A stretch of DNA of 64,000 nucleotides from the IMG/VR virus record IMGVR_UViG_3300020165_001964; one strand, 5' to 3'. The DNA comes from a virus. The position numbers and the translations under genes were made by a program. Below are positions 27,728 to 37,415 of the stretch, piece after piece; the stretch's first letter is position 1; each line of letters starts with the position of its first letter. The notes beneath the pieces are model-generated. The model did no database searches and had not been told where the DNA came from. It saw only the letters and a list, made by a program, of their open reading frames with translations.

Positions 27728-28941
27728 TGTACTTAGAGTACTTTAACAAGTTCAAGAATATGGAACCATATCTTTTTATTGGTGAAGAGGAATGGGAACA
27801 CATCAAGAATACTTTTGATAAAGACGATGTAAAAGAATCTTTGGCAAAAGTTGCGATGGAATATCCCATTCCTTATGCCAGTATTTCTGAGGATGATGCA
27901 TTTGATGCTCTCAAGAAACTAAAGGGTATGAGACACAACGAAATACTCGTTGAGGGAGAATGGTTCGCTCGTGAGGGTACTGATTTTAAATACGATTTAA
28001 CATTCGAGGGTAAACAACAATACTTTAAACGAATCAATACTGGTAACAAAGCAAGTAATTTCTTTCAACAAGTAAATCGATGGAGTGTTGATGGTACAAT
28101 TGCACCAGGTCCAAAGAGAACTTGGGAAACCGAAAAGTATATGACGAGTTTGATGGGTTCTGCATACTCACTTAAGTTATCAAAGATAGATGCAGGTAAC
28201 TTGAGAATTATGTTGAGTTTGAGAAAATATATTTGTTCTCAATTTAAACCAAATGTTGCCAAGGTATTGTATGATAAGTTAGGAAGTAAAAGTATATTGG
28301 ATTTCTCAGCAGGTTGGGGAGATAGATTGGCTGGATTCTATGCAAGTGAAACAGGTGAGTTTTACATGGGTATAGACCCACGAAAAGAAAATCATCCCAT
28401 CTATCATGAACAATCAGAGTTCTACGATAAACACAGAACTATGTTTGAAGTTCCTAAGAAGAGTATGTTTGTAGAACATCCTGCAGAGGATTTTGAATAC
28501 AAAAAGAATTCGTATGATACGGTCTTTACATCACCACCTTATTTTAATGTTGAGAGATATAGTTATGATGATACACAAAGTTGGGTTAGATATAAAACTA
28601 TTGATGAGTGGAATAAAAACTTTTTACAACATACACTAAAAAAAATATGGCCTTCTATCAAGAGAGGTGGATATTTATTAGTGAACATAAGTGATGTTTA
28701 CGCAAGTAGTGGTGGTAGTAAGAAGTGGTTAGAGATATGTAATCCTATGAATGATTTCTTAAGTACACTAAGTGATTCAGAGTATCAAGGTTGTATTGGA
28801 ATGGAGATGGCTAAACGACCTAATAGTGGTGGGGCAGGAACAGCATCAGAAGATAGATACAAAGACGAAACAAAGGAACTGGCAGAACAGACGAAAGATA
28901 AAACATTTTGTGAACCAATATGGGTATGGAAAAAGTATTAA
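27727..28941 (+). CDS. SAM-dependent amino (N4C/N6A) DNA methyltransferase-like protein
   Basis: LDFSAGWG motif I and FTSPPYF motif IV. Confidence 0.8.
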   Translation: MYLEYFNKFKNMEPYLFIGEEEWEHIKNTFDKDDVKESLAKVAMEYPIPYASISEDDAFDALKKLKGMRHNEILVEGEWFAREGTDFKYDLTFEGKQQYFKRINTGNKASNFFQQVNRWSVDGTIAPGPKRTWETEKYMTSLMGSAYSLKLSKIDAGNLRIMLSLRKYICSQFKPNVAKVLYDKLGSKSILDFSAGWGDRLAGFYASETGEFYMGIDPRKENHPIYHEQSEFYDKHRTMFEVPKKSMFVEHPAEDFEYKKNSYDTVFTSPPYFNVERYSYDDTQSWVRYKTIDEWNKNFLQHTLKKIWPSIKRGGYLLVNISDVYASSGGSKKWLEICNPMNDFLSTLSDSEYQGCIGMEMAKRPNSGGAGTASEDRYKDETKELAEQTKDKTFCEPIWVWKKY

Positions 28942-28955
28942 CAAAAAGGAATAAC

Positions 28956-29879
28956 ATGGAAGAAATTAAAAACACATTATGGGTAGAAAAATATCGGCCG
29001 TCGAAACTTGACAGCTACATAGGTAACCAACACCTAAGAAGTAAAGTCAAGGTCTACATCGAGAGTGGAGATTTACCACACCTTTTACTATACGGACGTG
29101 CTGGTACAGGTAAAACCACTCTCGCTAAATTACTTGTTAATAATATAGAGTGTGATTATCTTTACATCAACGCATCTGATGAGAATAGTGTGGATGTGGT
29201 TCGTGATAAAGTAAAGAACTTTGCATCAACACTTGGATTCAAAGAGATGAAAGTTATTATCTTGGATGAGTGTGATTACATTACACCAAATGCTCAGGCA
29301 GCACTAAGAAATCTAATGGAAACATTTAGTAAGAATTGTAGGTTTATCTTAACTTGTAATTATGTTGAGAGAATCATTGACCCAATTCAAAGTAGATGTC
29401 AATCATTTCAAATCATTCCACCAGATAGAAAAGAAGTTGCAGTTCATTTAAATACCATCCTAACAAAAGAGGGAGTTAAATCAGATATTGAAGATATTGT
29501 AACCATAGTTAATGGTGGTTTTCCTGATTTAAGAAGAGTGATTAATGCCGCACAAAGACAAGTAGTGAATGGTGAGTTGGTTATTGATGAGGGTATGAGT
29601 ATTCAGAATGATTACAAGAACCAAGTATTAGAAATCTTGAAAACACAAGATAAGAAGAATTGTTTTAAAAATATAAGACAACTATTAGCAGATTCAAAGG
29701 TAACAGATTTCTCTGATTTATTCAGATTGTTATTTGATACAGTCGATGATTGGGGTAGAGGTCATGTGGCTGAGTGTATTTTAGTTTTGGCTCAGTATCA
29801 ACAAAGTGATGCAGTAGTGGTAGATAAAGAAATTAACATTATGGCAATGTTTATTGAAATTATTGGCAAGGTAAAGTGA
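28956..29879 (+). CDS. Clamp loader AAA+ subunit (gp44/RFC-like)
   Basis: WVEKYRP, GRAGTGKT, NASDE, LDECD and SRC. Confidence 0.95.
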   Translation: MEEIKNTLWVEKYRPSKLDSYIGNQHLRSKVKVYIESGDLPHLLLYGRAGTGKTTLAKLLVNNIECDYLYINASDENSVDVVRDKVKNFASTLGFKEMKVIILDECDYITPNAQAALRNLMETFSKNCRFILTCNYVERIIDPIQSRCQSFQIIPPDRKEVAVHLNTILTKEGVKSDIEDIVTIVNGGFPDLRRVINAAQRQVVNGELVIDEGMSIQNDYKNQVLEILKTQDKKNCFKNIRQLLADSKVTDFSDLFRLLFDTVDDWGRGHVAECILVLAQYQQSDAVVVDKEINIMAMFIEIIGKVK

Positions 29880-30991
29880 GAAAAGGATTTTGTGTATCAC
29901 CATTTCGATATGCCGAAATAAGAGATAACGGAGATGTTTGGCAGTGTTGTACGAGTTGGATAGAAAAACCAGCTGGTAATATCTTAACAGATAAATGGGA
30001 TGATATTTGGAATAGTAATTACGCAAAAAGATTAAGAAGAAGTATGCACAAAGGTGATTTCTCTATGTGTGATGAAAACTTATGTCCTTACATTCAAAAG
30101 TGGAATAAAGGTGAAGAGGATTATTCAGCATACTTTCCAATATATGATGAATCAACATTTGAAAAGTTATGGGATGCAAAAGAAATAAATCCTAATGGAA
30201 AGAAAAAGTATCAAAATATAATAGAAAACAAAACTATTGATTTACCTTATGGGCCTGAAAGTGTTACATTTGCTCACGATAGAAGTTGTAATTTAGCTTG
30301 TCCATCTTGTAGAAAAGATTTCTTTAAAACAGAGGGTAAAGATAGAGAACAAACTTATAAGATACAAGAGTTAATTATGGGAGAACCTATATGTGATACT
30401 CACGAGGTTTATATAACTAACTCAGGTGATGCATTTGGAGCAGATGTATTTAGAGATTTATTGAAAATGATTAACACTAAAGATTTTCCAAATTTAGTTA
30501 ATTTACATTTACATACAAATGCTAATAGTTGGTCAAGAACACATTGGAATAAACTTAAAAACTTACACGATATTCCAAGATTAACTTGTCATATTAGTAT
30601 TGATGCATGTACAAAAGAAACTTACGAAATAGTAAGAAAAGGTGGTAAGTGGGAAACACTTCAGAAAAACTTAAAGTTTATATTTGAAGATATTCCTAAT
30701 TTAAAATTTATTAGAACATCATTTGTTTGTCAAGATTTAAATTATAAAGAGATGAGTGGTTTTGTAAAATTAATTGATGATTTAAGTTATGGTTCAGATG
30801 CCATAGTTGAAGTAGAGTTTGGACAATTTACTGATTGGGGTGTGAGTTCAAAGGAAATAGTTGAACAAAGACAGATATTTAAGAGAACACATCCTAATTA
30901 TAATTTGTTTTTAGAAGAATATAAAAAAATGTTAAAGTTAGATAAGAATGTACTTATTACAGATAATTTAGATATAGAGGAGTTAACATGA
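29876..30991 (+). CDS. Radical SAM protein with N-terminal SPASM/twitch-like domain
   Basis: CNLACPSC (CxxxCxxC); N-terminal C..GDVWQCC..GNI..IWNS. Confidence 0.85.
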   Translation: MRKGFCVSPFRYAEIRDNGDVWQCCTSWIEKPAGNILTDKWDDIWNSNYAKRLRRSMHKGDFSMCDENLCPYIQKWNKGEEDYSAYFPIYDESTFEKLWDAKEINPNGKKKYQNIIENKTIDLPYGPESVTFAHDRSCNLACPSCRKDFFKTEGKDREQTYKIQELIMGEPICDTHEVYITNSGDAFGADVFRDLLKMINTKDFPNLVNLHLHTNANSWSRTHWNKLKNLHDIPRLTCHISIDACTKETYEIVRKGGKWETLQKNLKFIFEDIPNLKFIRTSFVCQDLNYKEMSGFVKLIDDLSYGSDAIVEVEFGQFTDWGVSSKEIVEQRQIFKRTHPNYNLFLEEYKKMLKLDKNVLITDNLDIEELT

Positions 30992-31224
30992 GTAAAGATA
31001 GAAAATATCAAGAACCACCACAACCTGTGGATATTAGTGATACAGAAACAATAGTTTGTGAAGAGTGTGGAAACGCATCTTTCATACAATCATTCTTTCT
31101 GAAAAGAATATCACCATTAGTATCACCAACAGGTAAAGAAGCAATCGTACCAATACAAGTATTTGCATGTGGTAATTGTGGTTCAATACCAAAGAACATG
31201 ATGAATCAAATTGCAGAGCAATAG
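30988..31224 (+). CDS. Zn-ribbon protein
   Basis: CEECG..CGNCG. Confidence 0.7.
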   Translation: MSKDRKYQEPPQPVDISDTETIVCEECGNASFIQSFFLKRISPLVSPTGKEAIVPIQVFACGNCGSIPKNMMNQIAEQ

Positions 31225-31664
31225 TGTATTACAAAATAGATTTAACTGATTATGAACCACGAGAAACTCATAATTATTTAGAGTTTGATGAGTTTAAATT
31301 TAATCCTTATCAATTAGAAACTATTGAAAAGGAATTAAATAACTTTCAAGATTCATTTGGAAGACCTTGGAAAGAGTGGGATATGTCTGATTTGAAAGAT
31401 AGATTGCAAAACAATTTCACATTTTATTTACTTGAGGGTGGTTGGTGTTTTATAGATTGGGATAAAAAATATCCTTATTTATGTAATCGTTATGTGTTTT
31501 CAGAACACAGAGGCAAAGGGTTAGGAAAAGATTTGGTTTGGTTAAGGTGTAATGAAATCAAAAAACGAGGATTAAATACTGCTTCAATTAAATTAGATTG
31601 GTGGAACACACCAGCATTATCAGTCAAAAAAGATTATATTTTCACCGAAATTGATGGTATTTGA
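31224..31664 (+). CDS. GNAT-family acetyltransferase
   Basis: YVFSEHRGKGLG acetyl-CoA motif and NTPA; probable GTG start. Confidence 0.75.
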   Translation: MYYKIDLTDYEPRETHNYLEFDEFKFNPYQLETIEKELNNFQDSFGRPWKEWDMSDLKDRLQNNFTFYLLEGGWCFIDWDKKYPYLCNRYVFSEHRGKGLGKDLVWLRCNEIKKRGLNTASIKLDWWNTPALSVKKDYIFTEIDGI

Positions 31665-31705
31665 TATTTATATATGAAAAGTTTTATAGAAATTAGGAAA
31701 ACAAT

Positions 31706-33970
31706 ATGTCAACACAGATAACAAGAACAACAGAATTTATTAATCATATTACAGGTAGTGCAGGTAATTGGCCTTCATTATCAAATGCTGGAATTCTTGG
31801 TGGTATAGACTACCTTATAGAAAGTGGTTCCAACGAAGTAAAATTTATAGAAATGAATACCAATATTGGAATTGTTGGTAGTGCAGCAATACAGACAGGT
31901 AGTTACTTCGATGTAATATCAGATTATGTAAATGATAAAGGATACACGACTACTTATGTTTATGGAGTTAATCACAATGGTAAAAAAAATCCATCAACAC
32001 TTCAACAACCATTAATTAGTGCTAGTTTTGCACGACATGATATAACGACTAATTTTGAATATGGTGATAGTCTAACAAGAACATACTTTTTACAAAGAGG
32101 AGACGAAGACCACTTAGATAAGTTTCATTTATGGATGCAAACGCCTTGGTATAGTGATGATAATTTAAAAAGTATAGTTAGTGGTTCATTTGATAAAAAT
32201 ACATTTAGAACATTTTTGGGTAATTCACCATTTAGTTCTTCTTTGATACCATCATTTGATAAGGATAATTATACACCAAATAATAATTATCCAGATTTTG
32301 TAGTTAAAACTGCAACTCAAGATTCGAGTGTTCAAACTAATAAAATTGGTTTTTACACATACAATTCAACAAGTTCAAGTTATCAAAATGGAGTTGATAG
32401 TGGTTCTTTGATAGAAGAATATATTGTTCATAGTGGAAGTTACAGAGATGGACAATCACATTTGGGTGTGGGTAAAATAGAGTTTATGATGACACCAGAA
32501 AAGGTTATTGTGTTTGGTGATAGAGATTCTGGTAGAAATGTTAAACTAAAACCTACAGCAACAGATAGTTGGGATTATATAGGGCAAAAAGCAAAAACAT
32601 CTGCGAGTGGTAGTTTAATTAAAATGTATGATGGTTCAACAAAACAGGTTCAAGATGTTGAAGTTGGGGATGTTGTTTTAAGTTATCAACCATATGGAAT
32701 GCCAGATGAATCAAAAGATTATTTATCTTACACCACAACAGATTTAAGTGGTTCTACAACACAAGGTTCTATTGTTGTAGATGTAATGAACACCGAAAAT
32801 TATGGATATTATTTAATCAATGGTAGTATTAAAGCACCTTATAATTTACAACAGGCTAGTAGTGATATTAGATATTTTGTAAAACAAGGAGATACTTGGG
32901 AATGGATAACAACAGATGCTATTAGAACTGGAGATTATCTTTTAGACACAAGTGGTAATGAAACAGAAGTTACATCAAAGACAGAACATGATGGTGATAC
33001 ACTTTGGTATGCACTTGATGTAGAGGATATTGATACTTACTTCCAATCAAATATATTGGTTCACAATATTCCACCAAAGTGTTTTGTAGCAGGAACACCA
33101 ATCACTATGGGTGATGGAACTACAAAAGTTATTGAAAGAATTGAAATCGGTGATGAAGTTATGAATTATAATTTCAAAGATGAAGAAGTTCAGACAGGTA
33201 AAGTTACCACGATTGATACACCAACACACGCAGATATTATAGAGATTAGTTTTGGTGATAAGAAGACAAAGAATACATTTGACCATCCATATTGGGTAGT
33301 TGGAAAAGGTTGGAGTTCATATAAACCAGAGTGGACTAAAAAACGATATGATATAGAATCAAATCAATTAGAAATTGGTGATAAGTGTTTAGAACTTCGT
33401 GATGGTAAATTAGTGGAAAGAGAAATTACTAATATTGTTGAAGATATAAATCCAGTCCAAACTTATTCATTAGAAATAACAACAAACCATAACTATTTTG
33501 CAAATGATGTATTAGTTCATAACAAATTTTGTTTAATGGAAGACCAAGTTATTAATATGGGAGATGGTGTTTATAAAAGAATTGATGAGATAGAATTAGG
33601 TGAAAGTATTTTACAATACGATGAAGAAACTGAAGAGTTTAAAGAGGGTAAAGTAAATATGATAAGAAAGAAACTACATGATAATTGTTATGGAATCAAA
33701 GTTGAAAGTGGACAAACAATTAAAGCAACTGATAACCATCCATTTTTATTGAGAGATAAAGGTTGGTCTACAATTGCTGAGAACAATCCAATGTTTTTAC
33801 AAGATGGTGGTGGTATTATAAAAGTTGGTGATTATGTTAGAGATATAGATGGATGGGTAGAAATTGTAGAAATCAATAAAATTGAGGGAGAATATATAAC
33901 ATATAACTTGTTAGAACAAGATTATGGAACTATTATTGCTCATGATATTGTAACTCACAATTCACCTTAA
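31706..33970 (+). CDS. Putative permuted ATP-grasp domain fused to three tandem Hint (intein-like) domains
   Basis: Hint1 aa298-454 ending LVHN; Hint2 aa459-606 (CFVAGT..TFDHP..LVHN); Hint3 aa609-752 (CL..TDNHP..VTHN). N-domain has GIDY..FIEMNTN before PDFVVK..LIEEYI. Confidence 0.8.
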   Translation: MSTQITRTTEFINHITGSAGNWPSLSNAGILGGIDYLIESGSNEVKFIEMNTNIGIVGSAAIQTGSYFDVISDYVNDKGYTTTYVYGVNHNGKKNPSTLQQPLISASFARHDITTNFEYGDSLTRTYFLQRGDEDHLDKFHLWMQTPWYSDDNLKSIVSGSFDKNTFRTFLGNSPFSSSLIPSFDKDNYTPNNNYPDFVVKTATQDSSVQTNKIGFYTYNSTSSSYQNGVDSGSLIEEYIVHSGSYRDGQSHLGVGKIEFMMTPEKVIVFGDRDSGRNVKLKPTATDSWDYIGQKAKTSASGSLIKMYDGSTKQVQDVEVGDVVLSYQPYGMPDESKDYLSYTTTDLSGSTTQGSIVVDVMNTENYGYYLINGSIKAPYNLQQASSDIRYFVKQGDTWEWITTDAIRTGDYLLDTSGNETEVTSKTEHDGDTLWYALDVEDIDTYFQSNILVHNIPPKCFVAGTPITMGDGTTKVIERIEIGDEVMNYNFKDEEVQTGKVTTIDTPTHADIIEISFGDKKTKNTFDHPYWVVGKGWSSYKPEWTKKRYDIESNQLEIGDKCLELRDGKLVEREITNIVEDINPVQTYSLEITTNHNYFANDVLVHNKFCLMEDQVINMGDGVYKRIDEIELGESILQYDEETEEFKEGKVNMIRKKLHDNCYGIKVESGQTIKATDNHPFLLRDKGWSTIAENNPMFLQDGGGIIKVGDYVRDIDGWVEIVEINKIEGEYITYNLLEQDYGTIIAHDIVTHNSP

Positions 33971-33992
33971 TAGAAACTAAAAAGGTTGTAGG

Positions 33993-34619
33993 ATGGGAAA
34001 ATATAAACATAATAATAATTTCAAGTATTCAATTCAAATACCAAATTTCTTATCACATGAAAAGTGTGATGAAATAATTAAACAAGTTACAGATACAGAA
34101 GAACAAGTTGTAGGTTGTGTTGGTGATGAAAAGGGTAGTGTAATCATACCAGAAATCAGACAAACAAAAGAATGGTATTTAACAGACCAACCATTAAATG
34201 ATATGAGACCTGATAAAACTGCCAATGATTGGGGTTGGATACAGAAGAAAATGTACACGATTATTCAAATGGTAAATAAAGATATTTTCAAATTTGATAT
34301 CAGAGGTTATCATGATGAGTTAAAACTAATAGAATACCAAGATGGTGGTTTCTATGGTTGGCATACAGATTTTAATGCAGGTTATTGTTCAGTAAGAAAG
34401 TTAGTAGGAATAATTCAATTAACAGACCCGAGTGAATATGAGGGTGGAGATGTTCAATTCGGTATCCAAGATAAAAATACAAAAGAATGGTACACTATGG
34501 AGAAGAAAAAAGGCTCACTAACAATCTTTCCAACATTCTTATCACACAATGTAACACCAGTCACTAAAGGTAAACGACATGTAATTCAAGAATTATTTGT
34601 AGGAGACCATTTTAGGTGA
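33993..34619 (+). CDS. 2OG-Fe(II) oxygenase (P4H/PKHD-like)
   Basis: WHTD..YEGG..HNVTPVTKGKR. Confidence 0.92.
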   Translation: MGKYKHNNNFKYSIQIPNFLSHEKCDEIIKQVTDTEEQVVGCVGDEKGSVIIPEIRQTKEWYLTDQPLNDMRPDKTANDWGWIQKKMYTIIQMVNKDIFKFDIRGYHDELKLIEYQDGGFYGWHTDFNAGYCSVRKLVGIIQLTDPSEYEGGDVQFGIQDKNTKEWYTMEKKKGSLTIFPTFLSHNVTPVTKGKRHVIQELFVGDHFR

Positions 34620-35149
34620 TTGCAAATAAAAACTTTGAGTGGTTTTTAGTTAGAGATAACTTTTTATCATCTCAAGAGTGTGATGATGAAATTAAGTTTA
34701 TAGATAGTAATGTAAAAAAAGATAATTTTGTTTCGGGTGATATGCATGATTGTAAAAATGTTGATATAGAAAATGAAAAATTATTAGATAGACTATGGAA
34801 AGTAGTAAAACTATCTAACACATTGGTATATAAATTTGATATATCAGGTATTCAAGGTTCTTGTGGGAAGTTATATTCAGTAGATACATTTACAGCAGAT
34901 GATAATTATCATACAGACTTTGCAGCAGGAGATGGAAGTGTTGTTAATAGTTGTACTAAATTATCTTGTTTAATATTTTTAAATGATGATTTTGAGGATG
35001 GTGGATTACAAATTTGGAACGATAAAATAGATGCTAAAAAAGGTAGGTTAGTTATATTTCCATCATTTGCAGCACATAAAGTTTTACAATTTAGTGAAAA
35101 GGATAGATACACATTAATAACTTTCATAGGGGGCAATACTTTTAAATGA
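34616..35149 (+). CDS. 2OG-Fe(II) oxygenase
   Basis: YHTD..FLNDDFEDG..HKV..DRY. Confidence 0.88.
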   Translation: MIANKNFEWFLVRDNFLSSQECDDEIKFIDSNVKKDNFVSGDMHDCKNVDIENEKLLDRLWKVVKLSNTLVYKFDISGIQGSCGKLYSVDTFTADDNYHTDFAAGDGSVVNSCTKLSCLIFLNDDFEDGGLQIWNDKIDAKKGRLVIFPSFAAHKVLQFSEKDRYTLITFIGGNTFK

Positions 35150-35757
35150 AATATAAAAATATAAACATGGAAGAGTTGAAGATAAACCAAGATTTTAGAT
35201 GGTTTATTACAAGACCTAATTTCTTTTCAAAGGATGAATGTGAATATATGATAAAACATATAGATAAGACCTCAACAAGAAAGAAAGGACATTATACTGA
35301 AAACCGAGAAGATAGTTCATCATTGACTTGGGATACAACAGAGGATAGTAATGTTTGTATGTTAAACATTAGTAGAACAGAAGAGCAAAAGTATCTTGAT
35401 AAGTTTTGGAGTGCAATACAAATTGCAAACATAACAACATTCAAATATAATTTAAGTGGAATATTTGAAAATAGAGTACAGGCACACAGATATGATGTAG
35501 GTGATTGGTATAATCCACATGCGGATTTTCACTCAATACAAAAGTTTAGTTCAGTAAAATTAACTTGTATTGTATTTTTAAACGACCAACAAGATTATGA
35601 GGGTGGTGAGTTCAGAATGTTTGACGGAACAATCATAGAACCAGAAGTGGGGAAATTAATTATACATCCCGCATTTGCAGGACACGAGGTTAAACCAGTT
35701 ACAAAGGGTGAGAGATATTCTTGTGTTTGTTGGGCAGTAGGAGATACTTTCGTATGA
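35146..35757 (+). CDS. 2OG-Fe(II) oxygenase
   Basis: PHAD..YEGGEF..HEVKPVTKGER. Confidence 0.92.
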   Translation: MKYKNINMEELKINQDFRWFITRPNFFSKDECEYMIKHIDKTSTRKKGHYTENREDSSSLTWDTTEDSNVCMLNISRTEEQKYLDKFWSAIQIANITTFKYNLSGIFENRVQAHRYDVGDWYNPHADFHSIQKFSSVKLTCIVFLNDQQDYEGGEFRMFDGTIIEPEVGKLIIHPAFAGHEVKPVTKGERYSCVCWAVGDTFV

Positions 35758-36323
35758 TACAAAATGATAATTTTAAATTTGTAGTACATAAAGAGAATTT
35801 TTTATCTAATTCACAATGTGATAACTTGATAAAATATTTGGATGAAGTAAATCCAAATGATTCAGAACTTGCAGGAAAGTATGATGAAAATATTTTAAAT
35901 AAAAAGGTTCGTAACAATAAAGAAGTTATATTCAAAGATGATAAATTAAGAAATAAACTAAAAATGATTTTTGAATTATCAAACTTATCAATTTGGAATT
36001 TTGATATACAGAAAATGGAAGATGTAAAACTTTTAAAGTATGATGTTGGTGGTAAATATGAATGGCATACTGATTGTGGTTCCAAGAAAACTTCTAAAAG
36101 AAAACTAACTGCCATTGTTCAGTTATCAGATGAAACAACATACGAGGGTGGAGATTTAGAATTTGGAATCACCGAAGATTCAGGTGGGAAAAATTATACT
36201 GCACCAAGAGAGAGAGGGAGTATCACAATATTTCCTGCGTTCTTATCACATAGAGTAACACCAATCACTAAAGGAACTCGTTACTCATTAATAACTTGGA
36301 TGTTGGGAAATGCATTTAAATAA
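35754..36323 (+). CDS. 2OG-Fe(II) oxygenase
   Basis: WHTD..YEGGDL..HRVTPITKGTR; ATG at 35754 overlaps the upstream stop. Confidence 0.92.
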   Translation: MIQNDNFKFVVHKENFLSNSQCDNLIKYLDEVNPNDSELAGKYDENILNKKVRNNKEVIFKDDKLRNKLKMIFELSNLSIWNFDIQKMEDVKLLKYDVGGKYEWHTDCGSKKTSKRKLTAIVQLSDETTYEGGDLEFGITEDSGGKNYTAPRERGSITIFPAFLSHRVTPITKGTRYSLITWMLGNAFK

Positions 36324-36951
36324 AGTATTAGTATTAGGTTGTAGTCGTAGTGGAACAACAGAGTTTTGTAAAACACTACAAGAAGTTTCATCAAAGAAAT
36401 TTGTATGGGAGTTTGGATTTGATGACAATCTCAATAGATTAGTTAGTAGTTTAGGCATTACAGAATTTTTAGATAGAATATACAAAGATAAAAATACTCT
36501 TGGAATCAAGTATGGTGTTTATCCACAGAAAAAAATACATTTAGATTTGATAGATTCTCATGATATTGTTTTTTTCTTATCAAGAAGAAATGTATTTGAA
36601 CAGGCAATTTCATTGAACTTAGCAAAAAGAACGGATAAGTGGAGACCAATAGATTTTGGAGTTGAAACATTTTCACAAAAAGAAAAAGATGAATACAACA
36701 AGTTAAAAATTGAAAAGATTGAGGTTGAAGATATAAAAAAAGATATACAAGGTATTAAAGAAGCATCAATCAAGGTTATTGATTATTTAAAAACTCACAA
36801 GAGTTCAAGGGTATTATTTTATGAAGATTTATTTGGATTCTTTTCAGGTGTGAAATTAAATACACAAAAGAATTATAAAAATATTGAGAACTGGCAAGAA
36901 CTAAAAACTTTTTACGAACAGAATAAAGATTTTTGTCATTTTCACTTATAA
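36310..36951 (+). CDS. Sulfotransferase (Stf0-like)
   Basis: LGCSRSGTT PAPS-binding loop, RRNVFEQAIS and YEDL. Confidence 0.8.
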   Translation: MHLNKVLVLGCSRSGTTEFCKTLQEVSSKKFVWEFGFDDNLNRLVSSLGITEFLDRIYKDKNTLGIKYGVYPQKKIHLDLIDSHDIVFFLSRRNVFEQAISLNLAKRTDKWRPIDFGVETFSQKEKDEYNKLKIEKIEVEDIKKDIQGIKEASIKVIDYLKTHKSSRVLFYEDLFGFFSGVKLNTQKNYKNIENWQELKTFYEQNKDFCHFHL

Positions 36952-36983
36952 GTTTTATACTTATTTATATCTAAAAGGTTATT

Positions 36984-37415
36984 ATGAAAACAAAATCGTT
37001 ATTCGACCATATAAAACAAATTACTAATGTACAAAATCCAATGTATTGGGAATCACTTGATGAGGGTGATAAAAAAACTTGGAGTAACTACATGGTTCAT
37101 CGCTTTCTTAGTATGAAATCAGAGTGGTTGGTTGTAGTAAATGAAATACAAAAGTATTGGGAGTTGGCTCCTAAGAATGTGTATCAGTTTTACACCGATG
37201 TACTACCAAAGGGTAGAACATTCTTAAGGTATGTGAAATCAAAAAAGAAATCTAAAGTAGAGAAGTGGGCAATGGAACATTTAGTAGATTACTTTGAATG
37301 TAGTACACGAGAAGTAGAACAGCACTTAGATATTTTGACTAAAGAACAAGTTACCACCATCATTATGAAATATGGTGTAGATGATAAACAATTGAAAAAG
37401 ATATGGAGTAAGTAA
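36984..37415 (+). CDS. Clamp loader small subunit (gp62-like)
   Basis: SLFDHIKQI..YMVHRFLSM..YFECS pattern typical of gp62 homologues. Confidence 0.75.
   Translation: MKTKSLFDHIKQITNVQNPMYWESLDEGDKKTWSNYMVHRFLSMKSEWLVVVNEIQKYWELAPKNVYQFYTDVLPKGRTFLRYVKSKKKSKVEKWAMEHLVDYFECSTREVEQHLDILTKEQVTTIIMKYGVDDKQLKKIWSK

Follow-up and report, generated by a model that had tools for sequence, protein, structure and literature searches.

Why would a bacteriophage line up three Hint domains, with only two to four residues between them, at the end of a single protein? The question is raised by a 754-aa open reading frame of an uncultured marine T4-like phage, which lies in a window of 64,000 nucleotides (the whole stretch of DNA analysed here, IMG/VR record IMGVR_UViG_3300020165_001964; Table 1). 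Known roles of Hint domains are those of selfish inteins, of autoprocessing modules in Hedgehog and BIL proteins and of toxin releasers. For the present protein, a preliminary description had proposed programmed processing that yields the micro-peptides IPPK, KF and SP.

Table 1. Domains of the ATP-grasp–Hint protein and neighbouring genes (positions refer to the window).
Feature	Residues	Coordinates	Strand	Description
Whole ORF		31706..33970	+	ATP-grasp-like domain, Hint1, IPPK, Hint2, KF, Hint3, SP, stop; 332 homologues from metagenomes
N-domain	1–297	31706..32596	+	Predicted fold: ATP-grasp ligase, circularly permuted (glutathione synthetase/GspS/YgiC type)
Hint1	298–454	32597..33067	+	Degenerate, PT-HINT-like; no Cys/Ser1 constraint, no TxxH, terminal His-Asn retained
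IPPK	455–458	33068..33079	+	Native C-terminal tail of the family; disordered in the model (pLDDT below 50)
Hint2, type A	459–606	33080..33523	+	A-type BIL-like; Cys1, TFDH, HN
KF junction	607–608	33524..33529	+	Only the Lys conserved in homologues
Hint3, type B	609–752	33530..33961	+	Mini-intein-like; Cys1, TDNH, HN
SP and stop codon		33962..33970	+	Hint3-less allele ends in KLSP
Radical SAM/SPASM protein		29876..30991	+	Start of the island, between clamp-loader genes
78-aa protein		30988..31224	+	Two CxxC pairs; conserved island member (65% identity)
GNAT acetyltransferase-like gene		31176..31664	+	55–57% identity in loci L001 and L006
2OG-Fe(II) oxygenase ‘ox1’ (PF13640)		33993..34619	+	Linked to the ATP-grasp–Hint gene in 52/52 loci
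Three further 2OG-Fe(II) oxygenase paralogues		34616..35149, 35146..35757, 35721..36323	+	Within 34616..36323

The layout given in that description, i.e. an N-domain of ~297 aa followed by three Hints that are split by IPPK and KF and end in SP, was reproduced to the exact coordinate, and a reading of the sequence found the catalytic residues of all three Hints as described. Each Hint segment returns Hint-clan Pfam matches of its own, and the full-length protein matches PT-HINT (3e-15), Intein_splicing (4.5e-13) and Hint (1.1e-10). Within the protein, BLASTP aligns Hint1 with Hint2 (E 1e-8) and Hint2 with Hint3 (E 8e-16); the triple-Hint architecture is well past chance. As had also been noted, there is no homing endonuclease, for which domains of 144–157 aa leave no room. 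A tblastn search of cultured phages (INPHARED) with the whole protein left the N-domain unmatched and returned only remote Hint or intein matches and no annotated relative. The family was found in marine viral metagenomes only and is restricted to one marine T4-like phage lineage, in which it is widespread. Hint-like domains often occupy the C-terminus of marine phage proteins.

What lies upstream of the Hints is predicted to be an enzyme. The AF2 model of the N-domain (pLDDT 87) was placed by Foldseek next to YgiC (8.5e-8, probability 1.00), with GSS and GspS also matched, and its comparison with VIA gave a Z of 12.0 and an rmsd of 4.9 over 252 aligned residues. The modelled domain thus has an ATP-grasp fold in the permuted, GS/GspS-like topology. 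Among family members that are 24–100% identical, D35, E49-x-N51, K201 and E237 are invariant, residues which may be the counterparts of the metal- and ATP-binding residues of GS and GspS. Since the N-domain found no sequence match in Pfam or PHROGs, and a seven-member family profile found none among PDB sequences at E values up to 10, the ATP-grasp assignment is based on the predicted fold alone. In the BFVD library of viral structures, the model had no match at E ≤ 0.001.

Hint1 follows this domain directly. It is 35% identical to a complete C-terminal Hint of phage NCTB and, searched alone, reaches PT-HINT (PF07591) with 3.7e-6 and 27.7 bits, the gathering cut-off itself being 27.7. Its first residue is Thr, TxxH is absent and the domain ends in HN. 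In homologues, position 1 is occupied by T, S, I, F, V, L or R and the block-B His is absent, while the HN is retained in 131 of 134 sequences and followed by a conserved (I/L)-P. The combination of a variable position 1, a missing block-B His and a retained HN leaves Hint1 without an N-terminal nucleophile and with only C-terminal chemistry available, in agreement with the earlier view that the domain looks able to cleave at its C-terminus only. Hint1 also lacks the block-F His, a frequent helper of Asn cyclisation. In a model of residues 1–458 (pTM 0.87), Hint1 packs rigidly against the N-domain and the tail is floppy, suggesting that N-domain and Hint1 form one rigid enzyme core.

The tail itself does not look like a spacer intended for release, as had been supposed: IPPK is the native C-terminus of many alleles that carry no Hint beyond the core. 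At 22 of ~50 viral loci, as well as in further minimal forms, such Hint-less alleles stop directly after HN-IPPK, HN-IPKR or HN-IPKM. The border is the same at the DNA level: the block of additional Hints begins after the very Lys codon that precedes the stop in Hint-less alleles. A narrowed version of the original idea would nevertheless have Asn454 of Hint1 cyclise and free this tail—alone as IPPK in Hint-less alleles, with the add-on Hints still joined to it in the present one—whereupon the Pro-rich peptide could be ligated or cyclised by the ATP-grasp domain and hydroxylated by the neighbouring 2OG oxygenases. It would account for a His-Asn and (I/L)-P kept by Hint1 despite the loss of its N-terminal requirements. 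Short peptides are among the substrates of GS and GspS, and ox1 is linked to the gene in all 52 loci. PT-HINT, the best Pfam family for Hint1, is thought to free whatever lies downstream (PMC3417536). The distant relative P0158 does carry a 140-aa domain past the HN; downstream of Hint1 there is only IPPK or further Hints, so that Hint1 does not resemble a releaser of toxins or effectors. Moreover, each protein of 450–750 aa would give a single tetrapeptide, the final residues of the tail differ across the family (K, R, M, GK, RK, F or L), the two members that diverge most lack a tail and end in ‘HS’, and the missing block-F His is a further point against cyclisation. The oxygenase linkage, for its part, may be synteny inherited within one phage lineage. 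We rate such a release of the tail as distinctly improbable.

If the tail is the native end, Hint2 and Hint3 are additions to it, and the family shows how such additions behave. Members carry zero to three add-on Hints, with A always preceding B and B preceding T. All types have an invariant Cys1 and a conserved TxxH (the former in each of the 26 unique type-B domains of the alignment), the terminal HN is invariant in type A (52/52) and type B (32/32), and the +1 residue never varies, being Lys in 52/52 type-A domains, Ser in 32/32 type-B domains and Glu in the remaining type. The junctions vary otherwise, as does the −1 residue (K, F, L, I, P or C). Type T is the commonest add-on, present with 87 of 118 core sequences. 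It combines Cys1 and TDDH with the lack of a terminal Asn, and its VSD end means that it cannot be a splicing intein. On the core tree, Hint-less forms make up the basal branches and add-on content changes at least 14 times, such that even cores 85% identical differ in it. A fixed programme of peptide production would not predict such turnover among close relatives. Randomly varying spacers together with eroded catalytic residues had been named as an outcome that would refute the preliminary proposal; the KF and SP spacers do vary, whereas the catalytic residues are uneroded throughout the family.

This conservation of Cys1, TxxH and HN indicates that the self-cleavage chemistry of the add-ons is under selection. 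It bears directly on the proposal that none of the three Hints processes anything and that they are stable, β-rich binding or scaffold domains whose catalytic-looking residues are leftovers. Hint1 itself clearly does not splice and in the model acts as a structural partner to the ligase domain, and the frequency of C-terminal Hint-like domains in marine phage proteins would also fit. Leftovers would erode, however, and at only ~50% identity Cys1/TxxH, the +1 residue and, in types A and B, the HN are kept while adjacent positions vary, making purely structural add-ons very improbable.

Hint2 was previously called BIL-like, and its relatives bear this out. Its Pfam matches are AXH (1.9e-18), PT-HINT (3.4e-7) and Hom_end_hint (2.9e-6), and it has the features of an A-type BIL domain, with Cys459, TFDH, the HN ending at 606 and, instead of a +1 nucleophile, Lys607. 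In a phmmer search of the PDB, the nearest solved structures are BIL2 of the Tetrahymena BUBL proteins (6TMM/6Y75, E 2e-12 over the full length) and the bacterial BIL domain 2LWY (4e-11), compared with 2e-5 or weaker for inteins; by sequence, Hint2 is thus closer to BIL domains than to inteins. BUBL BIL2 joins the C-terminus of its N-extein to lysine ε-amines without ATP (PMC8616854). By analogy with BIL2 or Hedgehog, the add-ons could activate the tail carboxylate as a thioester, again without ATP, and pass it on to an amine. Acceptors could be the +1 Lys, with an isopeptide as the result, lysines in proteins of the phage or its host, or small amines bound by the ligase domain. The relationship to BIL2, the invariant +1 Lys and the prevalence of type T, which resembles Hog and B-type BIL domains, all point this way, as does the fact that GspS-type ligases bind amines. 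Hog and B-type BIL domains carry out thioester formation and resolution only. We nonetheless consider conjugation unlikely: the core cannot depend on the thioester for its function, given how often Hint-less alleles occur and that they are basal, add-ons have been lost repeatedly, the −1 residue is variable and no adduct-recognition region follows any of the Hints.

Hint3 presents a different picture. Its Pfam match is Intein_splicing (2.3e-9), its matches to solved structures are weak and fall on DnaB, DnaX and other mini-inteins (E 2e-5 and weaker), and it has the residues of a class-1 intein (Cys1, TDNH, HN752 and Ser753), so that the complete splicing set ascribed to it is present. It does not interrupt a needed host function, as SP is its entire C-extein and the site lies past the native C-terminus of Hint-less alleles. 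An allele without Hint3 ends in KLSP where the present one reads KF, Hint3 and SP, which places Hint3 between K(F/L) and SP; on sequence comparison, the two alleles differ as expected for a precisely inserted, intein-like element. KF and SP were dropped as peptide products in the main reading, because the junctions differ in length and sequence among homologues, with KL, KFI, KGSF, KGGPGSF, KICRL or K in place of the former and SSF, SRL, SGPGDS or SRP in place of the latter.

Taken together, the favoured answer is that Hint2 and Hint3 are BIL/intein modules that remove themselves and can be dispensed with, and that cleavage between K458 and C459 restores the native end of the enzyme, a reading to which we give about half of our belief. 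The core would be a GS/GspS-like permuted ATP-grasp ligase packed on a degenerate Hint1, with HN-IPPK as its native tail; in the present allele, the tail Lys would be followed by two complete modules, first Hint2 as an A-type BIL and then Hint3, which resembles a class-1 mini-intein. After translation, an N–S acyl shift would take place at Cys1 of each module. Resolution of the K458~C459 thioester would detach the Hint2-KF-Hint3-SP block and leave ATP-grasp-Hint1-IPPK, the very product that Hint-less alleles encode directly. Inside the freed block, Hint3 would splice or cleave (using Ser+1) and Hint2 would cut at Asn606, KF and SP being junction residues and incidental by-products. In evolution, the add-ons would be gained and lost freely, as selfish or merely tolerated elements. 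The domain layout, the conserved residues, the Hint-less alleles, the turnover of modules and the fold assignments are results of the analysis; the occurrence and order of cleavage, like the ligase activity of the core, we infer from sequence and predicted structure.

Removable modules are favoured by the commonness of Hint-less alleles with their shared Lys-codon border, by the basal position of these alleles and the repeated changes, also between cores 85% identical, by the conserved catalytic residues of the add-ons next to variable junction peptides, by the KLSP allele, by the respective affinities of Hint2 and Hint3 to BIL domains and mini-inteins, and by a core modelled as a rigid unit with a floppy tail. 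On the other side, this reading does not explain why Hint1 keeps an invariant His-Asn with a conserved (I/L)-P after it, and the strict A-B-T order and invariant +1 residues (K, S and E) suggest constraints beyond tolerance. The terminal T-type domain of most members hints at use of the thioester, and, lacking a homing endonuclease, the add-ons have no evident route of selfish spread.

The neighbourhood adds a functional context. The GNAT gene lies directly upstream of the ATP-grasp–Hint gene in both homologous locus sets compared. As 2OG oxygenases always adjoin the gene too, it is likely to mark a modification pathway, so far uncharacterised, that operates in infected cells. Fourteen apparent occurrences of ox1 without the ATP-grasp–Hint gene were discounted, the gene being present in all 14 at 1–2.5 kb upstream, behind another oxygenase paralogue. 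A more elaborate proposal would combine these parts into a self-processing peptide pathway of the phage, either RiPP-like or a form of ‘peptidylation’. Asn cyclisation by Hint1 and the add-on thioesters would release or activate the conserved, Pro-rich (I/L)PP.K tail, the Hints replacing a leader peptidase; the GspS-like domain would then ligate or cyclise the tail, or a BIL domain would transfer it to lysines, and its tailoring would fall to the GNAT and to the invariably linked oxygenases, which are prolyl-hydroxylase-like. We regard this as a long shot.

Searches of the literature found no treatment of the present family, of tandem phage Hints or of ATP-grasp–Hint fusions, nor any description of an ATP-grasp ligase with a degenerate Hint embedded in its core or with up to three interchangeable BIL/intein modules on its C-terminal tail. 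Natural alleles with zero, one, two or three add-ons constitute a ready-made experiment on whether such modules are parasites or tools, and bear on the use of BIL thioesters beyond ciliates. Being compact, domains of types A, B and T might also be turned into orthogonal self-cleaving tags.

Each part of the protein nevertheless has recognisable counterparts. The N-domain shares its predicted fold and permuted order (an early E-x-N metal motif, conserved Lys residues later) with GS, GspS, YgiC/YjfC and Cp1B, yet it is smaller (297 versus 370–480 aa), has no detectable sequence similarity to them and is fused to a Hint domain. With the Pretoxin-HINT domains of polymorphic toxins, Hint1 has its best Pfam match and the C-terminal HN in common; it differs from these and from Hog in the missing N-terminal nucleophile, the mere tetrapeptide downstream and the absence of a toxin domain or sterol-recognition region. 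Type T shares with Hog and B-type BIL domains the lack of a C-terminal Asn motif, leaving N-terminal chemistry only. Hint3 has the Cys1, TxxH, His-Asn and Ser+1 of class-1 mini-inteins such as DnaB and DnaX, and its flanks are joined (KLSP) in the allele without it, but only two residues form its C-extein, and instead of occupying a conserved functional site it sits downstream of where the host protein natively ends.

Bacterial BIL domains of the A and B types (Amitai 2003, Dassa 2004; reviewed in PMC7765530; PDB 2LWY) are counterparts of Hint2, which shares with the A type Cys1, TxxH, a terminal His-Asn, the lack of a +1 nucleophile and of an endonuclease, and a location in a variable protein region. 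Unlike bacterial BIL domains, the add-ons are phage-borne and stacked, up to three in a fixed order, at the extreme C-terminus behind a degenerate core Hint. The BUBL polyproteins of Tetrahymena likewise place tandem intein-like domains in one polyprotein, with thioester chemistry at Cys1 and a lysine amine as the acceptor in BIL2 (PMC8616854). In BUBL, however, folded ubiquitin-like cargo domains lie between the BILs, whereas the phage protein has two to four residues between its Hints, an enzyme upstream of them and alleles that dispense with the add-ons altogether.

The window comes from a T4-like phage (G+C ~32%) and encodes a DNA polymerase, a sliding clamp and a clamp loader; the polymerase shares at most 43% identity with that of any cultured phage. 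The ATP-grasp-Hint gene belongs to an island flanked by clamp-loader genes 44 and 62 and encodes a protein in which Pfam places one Hint-clan domain each in residues 298-454 (Hint1), 459-606 (Hint2) and 609-752 (Hint3). These domains match one another (BLASTP, E 1e-8 and 8e-16), with IPPK and KF as linkers and SP as the end; Pfam, BLASTP and translation thus bear out the three tandem Hints of the preliminary description, along with every residue it had named.

Coordinates of features in the window and in comparison loci
Feature	Position	Strand	Remark
Gene 44-gene 62 region	28920-37415		
Clamp-loader gene 44	28920-29879		
Radical SAM gene	29876-30991		371 aa
ATP-grasp-Hint gene	31706..33970	+	754 aa, ORF call
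AXH match in Hint2	33080-33400		N-terminal two thirds
ox1 (2OG-Fe(II) oxygenase)	33993..34619	+	PF13640
Gene after oxygenase array	36310-36951		213 aa
Clamp-loader gene 62	36984-37415		
P0148, divergent family member	L011:2998-7420		
P0158, distant family member	L013:3556-5496		
NCTB protein gene	L015:548-4462		LT598654.1, 1304 aa
Start-codon overlap	L047:5982-6010		T-ending allele
Start-codon overlap	L094:2027-2060		T-ending allele

Sequence methods (Pfam, PHROGs and a family profile against PDB sequences) gave no family assignment for the N-domain (residues 1-297). Its AlphaFold2 model, built on an alignment of 39 family members (pLDDT 87), matches E. coli YgiC and YjfC in Foldseek, together with eukaryotic glutathione synthetases and glutathionylspermidine/trypanothione synthetases (best E 8.5e-8 for the whole group). 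An independent structure search returned the same enzymes plus the E-64 ligase Cp1B (Z 12.0, 252 residues, rmsd 4.9); classical ATP-grasp enzymes reached only Z 5-6, aligning just residues ~80-300. This is the pattern expected of a circularly permuted ATP-grasp ligase, as which the modelled N-domain is predicted. D35, E49-x-N51, K201 and E237 are invariant down to 24% identity, and the E-x-N metal motif lies ahead of the conserved lysines, which we take to be the permuted order of the GS and GspS structures. Given a pTM of 0.87 for residues 1-458, the model joins ligase domain and Hint1 in a single predicted rigid body, from which the tail (455-458) extends disordered in the model.

Besides four 2OG-Fe(II) oxygenases (PF13640), the island encodes a GNAT, a radical SAM/SPASM protein, a 78-aa protein that carries two CxxC pairs and a weakly sulfotransferase-like protein. 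These tailoring-type genes part the gene 44/gene 62 pair by ~7 kb in the window, and the pair is likewise parted in two related metagenomic loci (L001, L006). In the window's radical SAM protein, the SPASM Fe-S domain (6-66) precedes the radical SAM core (136-278), the opposite of the usual arrangement; in related loci a 683-aa radical SAM gene lies 3′ of the oxygenases instead. The sulfotransferase-like gene follows the oxygenases and matches Stf0 weakly (E 0.006); sulfotransferase genes also lie beside two distant family members, an association that recurs but is weak. CxxC protein, GNAT and ox1 are orthologous even where the Hint protein has diverged to ~50% identity, and every one of the 52 viral loci with enough upstream DNA has the ATP-grasp-Hint gene ≤2.5 kb 5′ of ox1. 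Oxygenases likewise adjoin a 38%-identical form; the most distant forms are adjoined by sulfotransferases and AdoMet decarboxylase instead, as at P0148, where AdoMet decarboxylase, a QueC-like gene, a Vut_1 transporter and a sulfotransferase are found and 2OG oxygenases are not. The linkage to ox1 suggests a shared pathway, although, confined to one phage lineage, it is no proof of one.

A search of 5.8 billion proteins yielded 332 relatives, all from marine metagenomes or viral contigs; the family of the N-domain is a very small one, with 39 representatives in 1.8 billion proteins, and every structural look-alike from the ESM Atlas is viral. Splitting every member into domains gave one core (N-domain plus Hint1) and four add-on Hint types, invariably ordered core, A, B, then T or A2.

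Add-on Hint types (window: Hint2, type A; Hint3, type B)
Type	Position 1	Block B	End	Following residues
A	Cys	TFDH	HN 52/52	+1 Lys 52/52
B	Cys	TxNH	HN 32/32	+1 Ser 32/32
T	Cys	TDDH	VSD 98/99	acidic tail, usually ES(D/E)T(E)
A2 (rare)	Cys	TDDH	HN 2/3	+1 Glu 2/3

Among 146 unique proteins, 69 are H1-T, 19 H1-A-T, 18 H1-A-B (the window's architecture), 11 H1-A-B-T, nine H1 only and three H1-A. Hint1 ends in HN in 131/134 sequences, with Ile or Leu and then Pro as the next two residues; in homologues it starts with T, S, I, F, V, L or R and lacks the block-B His. P0158, downstream of a sulfotransferase gene, continues from the Hint1 HN into a ~140-aa Gly/Tyr/Trp/Thr-rich domain with no tetrapeptide, and the most divergent members, such as P0148, end in LVHS without a tail. 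Four proteins of the window protein's 90% cluster (P0129, P0130, P0128, P0136) were called as 448-494 aa on contigs up to 220 kb, beginning within the N-domain end or Hint1; these could be frameshifts, assembly errors or genuine truncated alleles.

The preliminary description had proposed IPPK, KF and SP as released micro-peptides. Among 80 further viral loci retrieved via the downstream oxygenase, ~50 carry the gene, and in 22 of these the allele ends four residues after Hint1 (HN-IPPK, HN-IPKR or HN-IPKM); divergent minimal members end in LPPK, IPGK, LPRK or LPKK. The Hint-less DNA reads ...CAC AAT ATT CCA CCA AAA TAA and the window ...CAC AAT ATT CCA CCA AAG TGT TTT..., so that the add-on block begins immediately 3′ of the shared Lys codon. 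By this comparison IPPK is the native C-terminus of the family and no purpose-made spacer. Nor do KF and SP hold up as products, since only the first residue is kept at junctions after type A (KF, KL, KFI, KGSF, KGGPGSF, KICRL or K) and type B (SP, SSF, SRL, SRF, SGPGDS or SRP). Because a type-A-only allele ends in KLSP, Hint3 lies precisely between K(L/F) and SP, intein-like within an otherwise continuous tail. In two T-ending alleles (L047, L094), the oxygenase start codon falls within the acidic-tail codons (VSD-ES..); the two genes thus overlap and are probably translationally coupled.

On a core tree of 118 sequences, Hint-less forms occupy basal branches and architecture changed at least 14 times (type A at least four, B at least seven, T at least six), with cores 85% identical differing by a whole module; the add-on Hints thus appear dispensable for the core's function and swapped at exact module borders. 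Across homologues the spacers vary, against the peptide idea; the add-on catalytic residues are conserved throughout despite module turnover, not eroded. That no processing whatever takes place, with catalytic residues this constant, we regard as very unlikely.

The nearest solved structure to Hint2 is Tetrahymena BUBL BIL2 (6TMM/6Y75; phmmer against PDB, E 2e-12, full length), followed by the bacterial BIL 2LWY (E 4e-11), identities confirmed by PMC8616854. Hint2's top Pfam match is AXH, the Ataxin-1/HBP1 module (1.9e-18, 114/116 profile positions), and phmmer matches it to human Ataxin-1 AXH structures (~5e-9), giving a clear sequence similarity between this BIL-type Hint and the eukaryotic domain; 'AXH domain' was absent from the top-ranked literature matches for AXH domain, intein and Hint.

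We see about an even chance that Hint2 and Hint3 act as BIL/intein modules that remove themselves from the native C-terminus to which they are appended. Resolution of a K458~C459 thioester would give the product that Hint-less alleles encode directly; on this view KF and SP are residues of the junctions. Self-removal leaves unaccounted for Hint1's invariant His-Asn, the strict order of the modules, together with their fixed +1 residues, and the prevalent terminal T-type Hint, capable of thioester formation only, and these keep rival readings alive. Considerably less likely is that the thioester is handed on to an amine or a lysine in the manner of BUBL and Hedgehog; BUBL BIL2 couples the ubiquitin-like domain upstream of it, through that domain's C-terminus, to lysine epsilon-amines and needs no ATP (PMC8616854). 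Less probable again is that Hint1 frees the Pro-rich tail as a pathway peptide, the His-Asn speaking for it.

A literature search turned up no account of this family or its architecture. Hint1 shares 35% identity with the complete C-terminal Hint of the phage NCTB protein; that protein has a Calx-beta domain and adjoins a tail-fibre gene, and its Hint (Gly6-Cys1 ... TQQH ... VHN, then seven more residues) has the look of a Hedgehog-style autoprocessing domain at the C-terminus of a structural protein. Hint2 fits A-type BILs, which keep His-Asn without a +1 nucleophile, and the T-type Hint fits B-type BILs, which are devoid of the C-terminal motif (PMC7765530). Hint3 matches solved mini-inteins weakly and carries the complete residue set of class-1 inteins. 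The chemistry is of no new kind: the protein would represent known Hint/BIL autoprocessing on a previously unrecognised, predicted phage ATP-grasp ligase.
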